Origin: Escherichia phage LorandFenyves_Bas91
DNA: 64,000 nucleotides
Reading direction: 5' to 3' (one strand)
Sequence record: PQ850614.1
The notes under the pieces were generated by a model, which did not search any database, was not told the DNA's origin, and was given only the letters and a program-made list of their open reading frames with translations. Made by a program: the position numbers and the translations under genes. Below are positions 40,161 through 62,534 of the stretch, one piece after another. Position 1 is the stretch's first letter, and each line of letters opens with the position of its first letter.

Positions 40161-40898
40161 TTAAGCTTTCTTTTCCATTGCTTTAACAATCGCCTTACAG
40201 AAACCAGAACGAACAATATCATCCGATTCACCGTCTACAATCTCAGCAAACTCATACAGATCATGTTCATCAATAAAGTTGGTAGCCCAAGTAAGACCAC
40301 TCTCACGACCACGCATATCATGCTGGTTAGTATCACCCATGCAGAACAGCTGAGAGGTTTCTCCCAATCGAGTCATGATTGAGAAGGCTTCATCTTTAGT
40401 GGTGTTCTGGAACTCATCAACAATAACAATAGCATCATTGAAAGAACGACCACGGAGATATTCCAGAGGTACGAACTCAATGTTGCTATTACCAAGTTGG
40501 CATTCATAGAACCCCTTACCATATCGCTGAGTGATAACATCAATGATAGGCATCAGGTATGGTTCAAACTTCTCACGCATTCCTCCCGGAAGTAACCCAA
40601 GAGAGTTGCCCATGCCAACCGAAGGGCGACTCAGAATGATCTTCTGAATCTTACCACTCTTCAGTGCATCAATAACCGTGGAAGTGATTACAAAGGTCTT
40701 ACCACAGCCCGCAGGAGCGTCTGTGAACACAACTTGTTTAGTCTTAATAGCATTGAGTAGCTCAGACTGAAACTGGTTCTGAGGGACTACAGGCTTTGCT
40801 AAAAGCACCTCTTCATACTCTCGCTTACCTTTACGAGTAACAAGTGCTTCCCGACGAAGGTCTTTCCGTGATTCTTTCCGTGATTGACGACGACTCAT
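40161..40898 (-). CDS. phoH: PhoH-like ATPase
   Basis: Walker A GCGKT and conserved PhoH core FVPLEYLRGRSFNDAIVIVDEFQN. Confidence 0.85.
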   Translation of the reverse strand: MSRRQSRKESRKDLRREALVTRKGKREYEEVLLAKPVVPQNQFQSELLNAIKTKQVVFTDAPAGCGKTFVITSTVIDALKSGKIQKIILSRPSVGMGNSLGLLPGGMREKFEPYLMPIIDVITQRYGKGFYECQLGNSNIEFVPLEYLRGRSFNDAIVIVDEFQNTTKDEAFSIMTRLGETSQLFCMGDTNQHDMRGRESGLTWATNFIDEHDLYEFAEIVDGESDDIVRSGFCKAIVKAMEKKA

Positions 40899-41080
40899 TT
40901 ACGCTCTCCAATTTCTTCGTAATGACACTCAGTAGTTAAGCAGTCTTTACAGATTGCTGTATAAACCCTGACGTTAGTAAATCGTTTATTCTTCCCTTTG
41001 GTTGGAGAGCCTTTGGCAAGCTCTCTGATAACCTTGTTACTTAAATGAAGGTTTGTTCCTTCACATCTAGAGCACTTCAT
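40895..41080 (-). CDS. small zinc-ribbon protein
   Basis: 61 aa with CxxC...CxxC (CSRC, CKDC); overlaps both neighbours. Confidence 0.45.
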   Translation of the reverse strand: MKCSRCEGTNLHLSNKVIRELAKGSPTKGKNKRFTNVRVYTAICKDCLTTECHYEEIGERK

Positions 41081-41396
41081 GGTTCATATCTTTATGAATC
41101 CTGTAAACAGCTGTCGCCATACAAGCAACAGCCTCATTATGTGGGAGGTGCATTCCTGTAGAACCATCCCAATCTTTGAACTCAGCGTCAAAGACTCCGG
41201 TAGGCTCTGGATACAGAGCTTGCAGCTCCACTAGATCATTAGCAACTTGTTGCCATTTATCATCAGACCAGATAGGGTCATCCAACCAGTAATACAAATA
41301 GGAATGGATGATCAATTGCCTTCTATACCGATTGATTACTTCAGCTGGACTTATCTCACTTCCATTTGAAGTCCTAAATGTATTACCGTCGATCAT
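41067..41396 (-). CDS. small protein resembling NAD-dependent DNA ligase N-terminal domain Ia
   Basis: INRYRRQLIIHSYLYYWLDDPIWSDDKWQQVANDLVELQALYPEP parallels the LigA N-terminal pattern L..LR..L..H.YLY..D.P.I.D.EYD.L..EL..LE..PE. Confidence 0.4.
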   Translation of the reverse strand: MIDGNTFRTSNGSEISPAEVINRYRRQLIIHSYLYYWLDDPIWSDDKWQQVANDLVELQALYPEPTGVFDAEFKDWDGSTGMHLPHNEAVACMATAVYRIHKDMNHEVL

Positions 41397-41599
41397 TATG
41401 AAAATTTCCGTTCTGTTAAAAAGTATATAACTTCACCATCCGGAGACCGAACTTTCTCTCCGTTTACCAACTTCTTGGCGTCTTCATATGAAGAACAATC
41501 TAAAGCAGGGTTATCAGGTGTTGGTTTCCTTAGGAAATATTTCCAAGTCCAACGCTCTCCGTCATCGTCTTGGCAGTCAAGAGTCCACAAAGTTTTCAT
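41396..41599 (-). CDS. hypothetical protein
   Basis: 67 aa ORF; start and stop overlap neighbours. Confidence 0.4.
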   Translation of the reverse strand: MKTLWTLDCQDDDGERWTWKYFLRKPTPDNPALDCSSYEDAKKLVNGEKVRSPDGEVIYFLTERKFS

Positions 41600-41781
41600 T
41601 TCACAACCTTAAATTTGAATGTTGTTGGGTGATAATAGTGCAACCTGTTAATGGTGTGCTTTGTTTCAAGATATATCCTACAAGAGTGACACATGACATG
41701 AGACAGACCAGTCACAGAGTTGGGTTTGAAGTTGGCGATAGGCTTCTCTTTCTTACAGAAGCTACAGACTTTCTTTTCCAT
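41596..41781 (-). CDS. small Cys-rich zinc-finger protein
   Basis: CSFC...CHSC motif; trimmed to the internal ATG (MEKKVCSFC). Confidence 0.4.
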   Translation of the reverse strand: MEKKVCSFCKKEKPIANFKPNSVTGLSHVMCHSCRIYLETKHTINRLHYYHPTTFKFKVVK

Positions 41782-41995
41782 CTTTTCTCCAGTGATCAAC
41801 GAATTGCTGAAACACTTTACGGTCAAATGTGAAATTACGAGCAATTCCGCATTCTCTAAAAGTGGCAGGCATATAATCTACATCACCTTCAGATGTATGA
41901 TCATAGACTTGAATAAGCTTTTTAATCTTATCCTTCTCTCTTCGAGGAAGCATCCTAAATGCCTCCTGAATATCTGTAATGTGTTTGATTTTCAT
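41762..41995 (-). CDS. hypothetical protein
   Basis: 77 aa ORF. Confidence 0.4.
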   Translation of the reverse strand: MKIKHITDIQEAFRMLPRREKDKIKKLIQVYDHTSEGDVDYMPATFRECGIARNFTFDRKVFQQFVDHWRKDGKESL

Positions 41996-42144
41996 CAGAA
42001 ATTCCTGCTAATCCTCTGAGTTGTGGGAACAGCAATATTCACATACTCCACAACAAGGGCAAATTTCTACACTTGGGTCGTATGCATCATCAACTGTCAT
42101 CCCACACTTAGTGCAGAACACATCATCATCTTCCTCTTCCAATA

Positions 42145-42801
42145 TTAACTCTCCAAAGTTTTCTTCAGGGCTGCCCATGAGATTGGGTAAAGTTTAGCCA
42201 TCTCTTCATCCAGAGATTGAGCAAACACTCGAACTTCGTATTGAGCGTGAGAGGAGAGTCGCTGACGACACAACTCAAACCAGCCATATAAAGAACCAGT
42301 CCACACCCACTCAGTGATCATTCCCTGAGGAAGAACAAATCGGGCTTGCTCTGGTGCAACGAATTCGATTAACTTGTCATATGCTGCTAGAGAAGCTTCA
42401 TATGCATCGTTAATCAACATTAATGCTTCAGCTCGTTCTCCATCGATGAGTTGAACCCCTGAACCTGCATGGAGGTCCGAAGGTCTCGCAAAAATCTCTT
42501 TAGGGATGAAGACTTCAACTGCTCCATCTTTATACCGCCGGGACATTTCGTTCCACGAGAATCCAACCTGATGCTTGCCCAACTGTCTCGCAATTGCGAT
42601 AGGTGCTTTGCATCGGAAACTGACTTGCGGGTGTCGGAATGGGGTAACATGCTTCTCTCTTGCGAGGAAGTTGATGAGACGTTCATCACGTTCATTTAAA
42701 TCACCTTCACGGGTTACGCCAAAGGAAACTCGAGCTGCGTTTACTACGCTACGATCACTTCCCATAGCTTCGATTAATGTTGCTTGTAGTTGTTCATTCA
42801 T
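42145..42801 (-). CDS. thyX: flavin-dependent thymidylate synthase (ThyX-like)
   Basis: RHPQVSFR...S.RY pattern (FRHPQVSFRCKAPIAIARQLGKHQVGFSWNEMSRRY) matches the ThyX signature region. Confidence 0.75.
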   Translation of the reverse strand: MNEQLQATLIEAMGSDRSVVNAARVSFGVTREGDLNERDERLINFLAREKHVTPFRHPQVSFRCKAPIAIARQLGKHQVGFSWNEMSRRYKDGAVEVFIPKEIFARPSDLHAGSGVQLIDGERAEALMLINDAYEASLAAYDKLIEFVAPEQARFVLPQGMITEWVWTGSLYGWFELCRQRLSSHAQYEVRVFAQSLDEEMAKLYPISWAALKKTLES

Positions 42802-61395: not shown

Positions 61396-61403
61396 ATTGA
61401 TTC

Positions 61404-61715
61404 CTATTTAAGTTTGAGGCTAATATTAAGGTGCATACATGCCCTGTTCTGTACAGCAGCATAACTTCTACCGAGCATGTCAGCCATTCTCTGAATAGAC
61501 ATGAACCCAGCATTACGGATAAGGAACTGGTCTTCTTCTTCAGACCACTTAACTCGGATTGAAGCTCTTGATATTCCGAACTTAGTGCAAGCTGTGTTAA
61601 CAGCATTCTCCGTTACATTCATAATCTGAGCAACTTCTTGAACCGAGTACTCTTTGATCAATCTCCGAAGATTTTCAATCTGCATCGGAGTCCATATAGT
61701 TCTTCGTGCTTTCAT
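61404..61715 (-). CDS. tandem helix-turn-helix DNA-binding protein (putative transcription regulator)
   Basis: Trimmed to the internal ATG (MKARRTIW) with GGAGGA RBS; two related repeats W(T/S)..E...L......S..E.A..M..T..AV. Confidence 0.5.
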   Translation of the reverse strand: MKARRTIWTPMQIENLRRLIKEYSVQEVAQIMNVTENAVNTACTKFGISRASIRVKWSEEEDQFLIRNAGFMSIQRMADMLGRSYAAVQNRACMHLNISLKLK

Positions 61716-62005
61716 ACATCCTCCAATTAAACATTTATATAAGACTTGCTTAGATAAAGATTCAATAAAATAGGGGGAGGGGACGAATCCTCCCATATCC
61801 TATTAATTAAGTTTGCATGTAAGATCTAACAATCGGTTGCCTTTGTAGGAATAGGTGTAAAGCCAATCCAGCACTAAACTCCCGCCCCCTTAGTGGGCTG
61901 GGTTATTAAAGGGTAACGCCCTTATGGGCTAGTTACATGAATGTTAGTTTGATAGGAGATCTGAAGTCCTATCTCAAAGGACTCTCGTAAGAATCCTTCA
62001 CGATA

Positions 62006-62137
62006 TTACTTATTCATTTTTCGTCGGCTATCTCTCCAAGCCAACCAAGTGTAGGTTTTCAACTCTTCTAAACTTTCTGGAGTGAATAGGTATTCTTTGA
62101 AGGTGTCACTAAACCACTCTAAAAATTCTTCAGTCAT
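62006..62137 (-). CDS. small hypothetical protein (43 aa)
   Basis: Not in the ORF track; weak RBS. Confidence 0.25.
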   Translation of the reverse strand: MTEEFLEWFSDTFKEYLFTPESLEELKTYTWLAWRDSRRKMNK

Positions 62138-62146
62138 AATAACATC

Positions 62147-62392
62147 TCATTTCTTAGGTAGAATAATATCCCACAGCCATGCCCACAAAATAAGTGATAT
62201 AAAAATCACAGCAATGATGGGCCATAGAAAAACTATAATTGCTATCTTTGATAAGTTTGGTTCGTTATCCCACCCTCTGAACTCGATACTGCCCTTTACA
62301 TCAAGATATCTTACCAGAGCTGAAACTATCACAATACCTATCAGGTAAACAATCAAGACACTAACAGGACTGATCACAAGGTTGATCTCCAC
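62147..62392 (-). CDS. small membrane protein
   Basis: Two hydrophobic helices; start codon uncertain. Confidence 0.45.
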   Translation of the reverse strand: MEINLVISPVSVLIVYLIGIVIVSALVRYLDVKGSIEFRGWDNEPNLSKIAIIVFLWPIIAVIFISLILWAWLWDIILPKK

Positions 62393-62534
62393 ATGTTTTA
62401 CAAATCACTGGTGAATAACTACAGGCAGGATATACTGACACACCATCAAACGTTTCACACCTACAATCAGGGCACTCACCATTGGATTCCATGTCATCAT
62501 CATCATACACTTCTCCACCACCATAACAGCTCAT
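62361..62534 (-). CDS. small Cys-rich acidic protein (57 aa)
   Basis: Not in the ORF track; GGAG RBS 5 nt upstream of ATG; CPDCRC...CKTCGDQPCDQSC. Confidence 0.4.
   Translation of the reverse strand: MSCYGGGEVYDDDDMESNGECPDCRCETFDGVSVYPACSYSPVICKTCGDQPCDQSC

Follow-up and report, generated by a model that had tools for sequence, protein, structure and literature searches.

Four small cysteine-rich genes of a Kuravirus-type phage probably encode metal-binding microproteins, one of them from a large undescribed family

A stretch of 64,000 nucleotides from Escherichia phage LorandFenyves_Bas91 (PQ850614.1), analysed at its full length and called the window below, carries four short open reading frames (ORFs), A to D, each with two CxxC motifs (Table 1). 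The phage is of the Kuravirus type, i.e. a phiEco32/SU10-like podophage of E. coli. Judged from their sequences, the four ORFs are real genes, because their ratios of nonsynonymous to synonymous substitution (dN/dS) lie between 0.02 and 0.16, their cysteines are invariant and ORFs with two CxxC motifs exceed the number expected by chance; that they are translated and that their products bind metal is very probable. A first-pass annotation had placed small CxxC proteins at the positions of A, B and D and, with less certainty, at that of C, and all four ORFs were found there, on the minus strand; C (56 residues) and D (57 residues) are the two that fall below its cutoff of 60 residues. It had also treated the proteins as one class. 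What they share is small size and a conserved CxxC...CxxC pattern, but they belong to four unrelated families without assigned function, and by sequence A and B are basic whereas C and D are very acidic.

Table 1. Positions of the four small genes and of the promoter-region copy in the window
Feature	Position	Strand	Basis
Gene A, 61-residue basic microprotein, predicted Cys4 zinc ribbon (phiEco32 gp61, SU10 gp58, phrog_14369)	40895..41080	-	ORF, conservation, AlphaFold2 (AF2) model, dN/dS
Gene B, 61-residue basic CxxC-21-CxxC microprotein (phiEco32 gp63, SU10 gp60, phrog_15951)	41596..41781	-	ORF, conservation, dN/dS
Gene C, 56-residue (or 44-residue from TTG 42142) very acidic 8-Cys microprotein (SU10 gp62, phrog_16989)	42008..42178	-	ORF, conservation, dN/dS
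Gene D, 57-residue very acidic early microprotein (phiEco32 gp103, phrog_13157)	62361..62534	-	ORF, conservation, dN/dS
Copy of phiEco32 middle promoter P68 region, contains AATGTA	44252..44277	-	100% identity to phiEco32, motif located

When ORFs of up to 120 residues with two CxxC motifs at least 10 residues apart were counted, the window held five, against 0.4 ± 0.66 (maximum 3) in 100 shuffled sequences, a 12-fold excess. Four of the five are A to D, on the coding strand, and the fifth is antisense. A looser scan of the window found no further gene-like small Cys-rich ORF on the coding strand except a putative lipoprotein gene at 63023-63304. Pairwise comparison with Kuravirus relatives by the Nei-Gojobori method gave dN/dS values of 0.05-0.16 for A, 0.07-0.14 for B, 0.02-0.14 for C and 0.05-0.09 for D, and tblastn located the genes in 106, 90, 50 and 88 phage records, respectively. 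The first-pass annotation had named the Cys spacing in related phages as a point on which its reading could fail, and the spacing is conserved: the cysteines are invariant within each of the four families, also at a divergence far beyond that of the pairs used for dN/dS. All four proteins match PHROG families with E values from 1e-15 to 1e-45, and gp61, gp63 and gp103 of phiEco32 and gp62 of SU10 are direct orthologues, all of them annotated as hypothetical proteins and not different in kind. The antisense ORF (53291-53458, plus strand) has 55 residues and 8 Cys, runs in the opposite direction to the early genes and is probably a chance frame.

Protein A (pI 9.3, net charge +6) has the pattern C3xxC6...C44xxC47 (MKCSRCEG...ICKDCLTTEC...) and is 100% identical to phiEco32 gp61, which occupies the syntenic position. 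A profile search of 5.8 billion proteins retrieved 13 clusters only, all from Kuravirus-like or Grimontviridae (7-11-like) phages; family A is restricted to podophages of the C3 morphotype, and in both viral families the gene lies in a PhoH/thioredoxin/ThyX module, with differing gene order. The invariant positions are C3, C6, E20, L21, S25, P26, G29, K30, N31, C44, C47 and Y54, and both CxxC knuckles are unchanged in 14 sequences down to 33% identity, with a loop of the form ELxKGSPxxGKN. Structure predictions were run with AF2 on database proteins. The model of A (predicted local distance difference test score, pLDDT, of 86) confidently predicts a three-stranded antiparallel zinc ribbon with strands at residues 11-21, 34-44 and 50-56, in which the conserved loop, KGSPx[KR]GKN[KR], forms the tip of a long hairpin. 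SPKK is a motif that binds the minor groove of DNA, and the S-P-x-K/R of the A loop resembles it, so far as the analogy goes.

Classical Cys4 zinc ribbons (TFIIS domain III, the N-terminal domain of NrdR, L37Ae, Lar) likewise have two CxxC knuckles and a three-stranded antiparallel sheet as predicted for A. The spacer of A is unusually long by comparison, at 37 residues, and has a conserved basic tip of its own, whereas D differs from these ribbons in four further invariant cysteines and a Ser in place of the second Cys of a knuckle. Besides NrdR, taken up below, the structural neighbours of the A model found with Foldseek in the PDB and BFVD are viral and cellular zinc ribbons (TFIIS-type, Lar-like, InsA), none of them significant; the BFVD matches, its own homologue from SE131 and various zinc ribbons of viruses, have E>0.01 throughout. 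For the likenesses of A and D to the L37Ae, TFIIS-type, Lar and NrdR ribbons, no Pfam sequence model passes its threshold.

Among relatives the start codon of A stands at one and the same position and is ATG, GTG or CTG depending on the phage. Where it is CTG, an AAGGA lies nine nucleotides upstream, and because of this the near-cognate CTG seems to be used as the start.

Protein B (pI 9.7, net charge +9) has the pattern C6xxC9...C31xxC34 (MEKKVCSFCKKEKPIANF...MCHSCRIYLE...) and is 92% identical to phiEco32 gp63 at the syntenic position. A GGAG Shine-Dalgarno sequence precedes its ATG, and the 82-residue extension from a TTG start that the ORF finder proposed is not conserved. B is confined to Kuravirus-like genomes: all its phage records come from Escherichia or Shigella phages or from phages closely matching Kuravirus, and IMG/VR adds four loci only. 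Almost two thirds of the positions are invariant among four sequences down to 60% identity, including a C-terminal tail, INxLHYY...K.KV. Over residues 1-43, B gives weak PHROG matches (E 1.9e-4 to 0.06) to the N-terminal modules of endonuclease, HNH, EndoVII and Lar-like proteins, with which it has in common the pattern KxCxxCxxxKxxxxF...G...CxxCR; it differs from the HNH and endonuclease VII-like nucleases in having no nuclease domain and in its unique conserved tail. No catalytic HNH or His-Me finger domain is present in the 61 residues, and neither HNH nor Endonuclease_7 is matched in Pfam. The Pfam matches that B does give, to zf-FCS and Lar_restr_allev, stay below threshold; the latter (PF14354) scores 15 bits against a cutoff of 28.6, with a PHROG E value of 6.8e-4 for the Lar-like family.

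Protein C (pI 4.05, net charge -15, 8 Cys; ...DDDVFCTKCGMTVDDAYDPSVEICPCCGVCEYCCSHNSED) has a core, FCTKCG-x14-CPCCGVCEYCC, in which a rubredoxin-like knuckle pair is joined by four extra cysteines. The ATG at 42178 overlaps thyX by 34 nucleotides and has no Shine-Dalgarno sequence. The start may instead be the TTG at 42142, which lies 2 nucleotides past the thyX stop with GGAG 8 nucleotides upstream and would give a protein of 44 residues, as in SU10 gp62. The core is 96% identical to that syntenic SU10 protein, 95-100% identical in most of the 50 Kuravirus-like records and 89% identical in PAS59. About half of the Kuravirus records contain C; phiEco32 does not. In the window C is joined to the end of thyX, the SU10 gp63 gene being missing. 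A HMMER search of 1.84 billion representatives for deep homologues returned its own cluster and repetitive Cys-rich giants only; in one repetitive Cys-rich protein, P0140, ribbon units of the form CxxCG-x12-15-CPxCG match the first half of C, as do the knuckles of rubredoxin. The best PDB sequence match is rubredoxin 1spw, over the knuckles only and not significant (E 0.29), and Pfam gives no rubredoxin match. For the labels 'membrane protein' and 'NAD+ diphosphatase' that RefSeq attaches to C orthologues, no support was found.

Protein D (MSCYGGGEVYDDDDMESNGECPDCRCETFDGVSVYPACSYSPVICKTCGDQPCDQSC; net charge -10, 9 Cys) was described as acidic in the first-pass annotation, and rightly, at a pI of 4.05; it ends in CKTCGDQPCDQSC. 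AAGGAG lies 6 nucleotides upstream of its start, and it is 89% identical to phiEco32 gp103, which is syntenic (phrog_13157, E 2.4e-29). A word-indexed search with D alone returned 4 proteins only, and a profile search was needed to reveal the family, which comprises at least 389 clusters at E<=1, none with a Pfam domain. The phage records include, besides Kuraviruses, Proteus Privateervirus, Serratia Muldoonvirus (173 kb), Pseudomonas phages (~50 kb) and phages of Cronobacter, Pantoea and Erwinia. Homologues also occur in IMG/VR contigs of up to 259 kb, in 207 JGI metagenome stretches and in bacterial assemblies (Pelagimonas, Brevundimonas, Acidithiobacillus, Cysteiniphilum, Melioribacteraceae), where at least one adjoins an integrase. 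Family D is large and widespread as well as undescribed, with no name and no study devoted to it.

The consensus of the family is MCCDGW-x6-9-NGxCPDCGxxTVDGxAxxGCNYSPVxCxTCGxAPCDxSC. In 113 sequences nine positions never vary (C3, C21, C24, C38, S41, C45, C48, C53 and C57). Each of the 120 full-length members has Cys as its last residue, and 117 of them keep the spacing CxxC-12-C-6-CxxC-4-C-3-C, at a median net charge of -9. The D of the window follows the family pattern M-x0-1-C...CPxC-x12-13-C-x-[YW]-S-x3-CxxC-x4-C-x3-C-COOH, with all eight cysteines and S41. Its central part weakly matches the L37Ae zinc ribbon, and no match above threshold was found in Pfam, NCBIfam, PDB sequences or PDB structures.

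Knuckles of the CxxCG and CPxCG type, in acidic proteins of ~55 residues, link C and D to rubredoxin and the zinc_ribbon_2-type mini ribbons, and also to the archaeal C(P)xCG zinc-finger micro-proteins (Haloferax HVO_2753 and relatives, PMC11241148). The similarity is not significant (E 0.29 to 3), however, and C and D differ from rubredoxin and the C(P)xCG proteins in having eight cysteines rather than four and no rubredoxin-type aromatic core. C and D were also considered as paralogues of one another, which we did not accept (hhalign probability 6.6%, P 0.0055, for an alignment confined to the knuckles).

We propose that the four genes evolved separately and that each encodes a microprotein of 6-7 kDa stabilised by a metal, most likely Zn2+ held by cysteine thiolates, without which so small a protein would not fold. 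A would bind nucleic acid through the basic tip of its hairpin; B may be a stand-alone copy of the N-terminal CxxC...CxxC module of phage HNH or endonuclease VII-like nucleases and may likewise bind DNA. C appears to be an accessory gene that has spread recently in some Kuraviruses. In D, two Cys4 metal sites would tie both termini onto the central CPxCG/CxxCG knuckle pair, and the partner of C and of D would be not DNA but a protein of the host or the phage, which might itself bind DNA. Coding status, conservation, Cys patterns and gene context were observed directly, as was the fold of A at the level of a prediction; the identity of the metal, the pairing of the sites and every target we infer. 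These modes of action are accordingly held tentatively, as one possibility, and the explanation as a whole, in which they are combined with the much firmer case for real metal-binding microproteins, is slightly favoured over its negation.

Several observations weigh against this explanation. Mass spectrometry of a polyethylene glycol-concentrated preparation of SU10 identified 34 proteins, none of them an orthologue of A to D, in a virion-enriched sample that is ill suited to 6-kDa proteins. The start of A in the window has no clear Shine-Dalgarno sequence and is GTG or CTG in some relatives. None of the four reaches the gathering threshold of a Pfam zinc-ribbon model (Zn_ribbon_3CxxC, Zn_ribbon_3, zf-FCS, Lar_restr_allev, Zn_ribbon_Elf1 and others), the best scores being 13.7 against 23, 13.7 against 27, 19.2 against 22.4 and 15 against 28.6 bits, and NCBIfam gives nothing above its cutoff. 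The term zinc-ribbon-like, which the first-pass annotation had used for the whole set, suits the predicted fold of A and not the eight-Cys D, which is no simple ribbon. The AF2 model of D is of moderate confidence (pLDDT 72) and contains a short hairpin only, and a Foldseek search with it found no structural match; hits to RNA polymerase chains (E ~8 over 17 columns) are meaningless. The two-site arrangement of D is a guess, and C or D may hold iron or an Fe-S cluster instead. Finally, all-against-all clustering of the ORFs flanking D in 15, 24 and then 79 distinct loci revealed no conserved neighbour, no family being present in more than 6 loci.

Pfam counts were also taken on 140 neighbours of D. 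The commonest are a T7-type primase-helicase (6 of the 51 loci with at least 3 kb of flank, directly downstream in 4) and RtcB (4 loci). The idea that D supplies a zinc-binding domain in trans to the primase-helicase was rejected, as the neighbouring helicases keep their own N-terminal HxC/CxxC motifs.

For D, a bolder reading would see a new two-metal-site fold in a widespread family of strongly acidic proteins of ~52 residues, which prophages, jumbo phages, podoviruses and myoviruses from many bacterial phyla would express early against a conserved factor of the host, e.g. a DNA-binding defence or repair protein that would be neutralised; we regard this as rather unlikely. A related alternative is that C, D or both are anti-restriction or anti-defence decoys that explain the resistance of Kuraviruses to restriction-modification (RM) systems, a resistance that in the Gordonclarkvirinae is unexplained. 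The strong negative charge of C and D, the acidity of the whole D family and the early expression of D are in keeping with such a role. So is a prophage in a metagenome-assembled genome of Pelagimonas (locus L024, 2037-2590), in which the D homologue overlaps the end of a 130-residue Lar_restr_allev gene, two genes upstream of an excisionase-like HTH_17 gene and an integrase. That neighbour, however, is found at 1 of 79 loci. Among the best 60 matches of D, moreover, the only Gordonclarkvirinae of the BASEL collection are Bas89 and Bas90, and at most four Kuravirus-like places are left there for the other seven isolates, so that at least three RM-resistant isolates are without D. C occurs in 50 records only, is absent from phiEco32 and is a middle gene, late for an anti-restriction role. 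The decoy role is thus improbable on balance, and the idea that D accounts in general for the RM resistance of the Gordonclarkvirinae was rejected, since several resistant BASEL isolates are without it.

It is quite unlikely that B is a decayed and non-functional remnant of a homing endonuclease. B does resemble only the N-terminal zinc modules of HNH and EndoVII endonucleases, and homing endonucleases are inserted at various places in the gene string of relatives, e.g. in Bas87. Every Kuravirus-like genome examined nevertheless has the 61-residue ORF intact and its stop at the same place, even where identity drops to 54%, its dN/dS is low, and its C-terminal 25 residues, which have no counterpart in the endonucleases, are as conserved as the cysteines.

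The first-pass annotation had suggested, in general terms, that such mini zinc ribbons often bind host targets, among them RNA polymerase; by binding the polymerase they would redirect transcription. Phages do have zinc-binding regulators of 60-75 residues with a Cys4 site, encoded in early or middle operons (P2 Ogr and P4 Delta, Mu Com, TraR/DksA-like proteins), and Ogr/Delta and the TraR/DksA-like proteins are precedents for binding of RNA polymerase. A to D are of the same size class, with a Cys4 site and early or middle expression, but have other Cys spacings and no detectable homology to these regulators (no Pfam match at E<=1, whether to Ogr_Delta, zf-dskA_traR or any family that binds RNA polymerase). 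The early expression of D, from sigma-70 promoters by synteny, would also suit a role at the polymerase. Pull-downs of RNA polymerase from phiEco32-infected cells nevertheless recovered only gp36 and gp79 (PMC12276001), which counts against gp61, gp63 and gp103, and the Foldseek hits of D to polymerase chains have no meaning. The analysis gave no evidence that the targets are RNA polymerase, nucleoid proteins or restriction enzymes, and we consider the transcriptional role very doubtful.

Structural comparison raises a different possibility for A, namely a NrdR-like zinc-ribbon DNA binder that acts on the expression of the host ribonucleotide reductase. NrdR chains are the top PDB matches of its model (Foldseek probability 0.96, E 0.35, template modelling score 0.44, root-mean-square deviation 5.8), and the weak BFVD matches include stand-alone viral 'NrdR-like N-terminal domain' proteins of 59-64 residues. 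Genes for ThyX, thioredoxin, dCTP deaminase and dNMP kinase are present in the phage but none is annotated for a ribonucleotide reductase of its own, nor is one in the closest genome over 27.5-77.4 kb, and A is kept in its PhoH/thioredoxin/ThyX module in two viral families. On the other side, no Foldseek match reaches E 0.001, alignment of the A profile to E. coli NrdR with hhalign gives a probability of 0.3%, and NrdR was not retrieved when PDB sequences were searched with the profile. A also has no C-terminal ATP-cone, ending at 61 residues, 14 past the second knuckle, and its Cys spacing is 37 against 24 in NrdR. The structural top match is not backed by sequence, and homology to NrdR was therefore rejected; the regulatory role is kept as a lead of very low probability.

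Less probable still is the proposal that D is the substrate or partner of a phage system of ATP-grasp, amidoligase, GATase and gamma-glutamyl-cyclotransferase enzymes, modified e.g. at its C-terminal Cys. Three phage contigs unrelated to one another (L008, L048 and L049) have genes of this set no more than 4 kb away from their D homologue, which is a lead and not a finding: an ATP-grasp gene is upstream of D in Pseudomonas phage HHBS10_2, GATase_6 and Amidoligase_2 adjoin UDG-D in L048, and GGACT overlaps the end of D in L049. Kuraviruses carry the whole enzyme set, and the terminal Cys present in 120 of 120 family members would offer a site. In the window, though, these genes are 5-12 kb from D, no such neighbour family occurs in three or more of the 79 loci, the prophage and jumbo-phage contexts are without them, and a shared placement in the early region may by itself explain the co-location.

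That the four ORFs are chance open frames, as their shortness, the want of a clear Shine-Dalgarno sequence at the ATG of A and C, the failure of proteomics to detect them and their omission from several GenBank records might suggest, is effectively refuted by the dN/dS values, the PHROG matches of all four, the invariance of Cys across homologues of 33-60% identity and the excess over shuffled sequences.

The 40-45 kb region of the window matches Escherichia phage vB_EcoP-CHD5UKE1 at 98%, and ~100 further Kuravirus genomes (phiEco32, SU10, NJ01 and others) match it too. From ~27 kb to its end the window carries its genes on the minus strand. The temporal classes were taken over from SU10 and phiEco32, and synteny with these phages places A, B and C in the middle cluster (SU10 CDS 25-68) and D in the early cluster (SU10 CDS 69-125), in agreement with the early and middle placement given in the first-pass annotation. 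A, B and C belong to a tightly packed gene string in the order Dps-like, thioredoxin, ThyX, C, a 77-residue ORF, B, a 67-residue ORF, Nlig-Ia, A and PhoH. At the ThyX/C junction there is either the 34-nucleotide overlap or, if C begins at the TTG, a gap of 2 nucleotides; the 77-residue ORF overlaps B by 20 nucleotides, B and the 67-residue ORF share an ATGA in which the stop of B overlaps the next start, the 67-residue ORF overlaps Nlig-Ia by 1 nucleotide, the end of Nlig-Ia covers the start of A over 14 nucleotides, and A and PhoH again share an ATGA. Because all junctions from thyX to phoH overlap or abut, translational coupling along the string is suggested.

Upstream of this string, and in the same orientation, lies the copy of the P68 region: window positions 44126-44395 are 100% identical to a 270-nucleotide stretch around P68, which in phiEco32 is an experimentally defined gp36-dependent promoter (PMC12276001, PMC8948821). 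The middle operon contains a terminator-like hairpin (43306-43334, minus strand; 11-bp stem with 7 GC pairs), which lies between the Dps/ferritin-like gene and the small membrane ORF that precedes thioredoxin; such sites are no more numerous in the region than chance would predict. The product of the Nlig-Ia gene (41067-41396, minus strand) is domain Ia, the part of an NAD-dependent DNA ligase that binds NAD+ (Pfam Nlig-Ia, E 2.6e-34), here on its own and without the catalytic domains of a ligase; relatives label the gene 'DNA ligase'. A tRNA-Arg(tct) at 63450-63525 (minus strand) overlaps by 10 nucleotides the 3' end of a 140-residue HNH_3 homing-endonuclease ORF (63516-63938, minus strand), and the SU10 alignment to the window stops at ~63440.

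Public annotation of the four genes is inconsistent among Kuravirus genomes. A, B and C are unannotated in PAS59 and A in Bas88, while in Bas87 and SE131 A is annotated in a truncated form from which the first CxxC is missing. The RefSeq record of CHD5UKE1 (NC_070989.1; 2356-2700 in locus L001) has a plus-strand ORF annotated antisense to B and the 67-residue ORF. In the same record gp064 (2630-2932 in L001), the homologue of the 77-residue ORF, has 18 consecutive Phe codons and a duplicated segment; the window has neither, and both are probably assembly artefacts. The 77-residue ORF itself (41762-41995, minus strand), which RefSeq names 'anti-restriction nuclease' and for which there is no Pfam match, is 82% identical in the Grimontviridae phage PKM.Lu.22.1. 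In that phage D is 87.7% identical to the window whereas A is only 43% identical, and these sequence identities suggest a recent exchange of accessory genes between Kuravirus-like and Grimontviridae phages.

Small conserved Cys-rich proteins that probably bind zinc are ordinary for phages. Since the polymerase pull-downs recovered only gp36 and gp79, several resistant BASEL isolates are without D, phiEco32 is without C, and A and B carry a positive net charge, we regard the four as genuine zinc microproteins of a kind ordinary in phages, with the D family as the item worth experimental follow-up. If the proteins prove to be structural or minor regulators, little changes. Small zinc-stabilised proteins are, all the same, a common and almost unstudied class of host-takeover genes in phages, and the D family, with its clusters in phages of several bacterial phyla, is large enough to merit a structure and a target screen. 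Kuraviruses are candidates for therapy, and because their resistance to restriction systems is unexplained, it is reasonable to test their uncharacterised early and acidic proteins.

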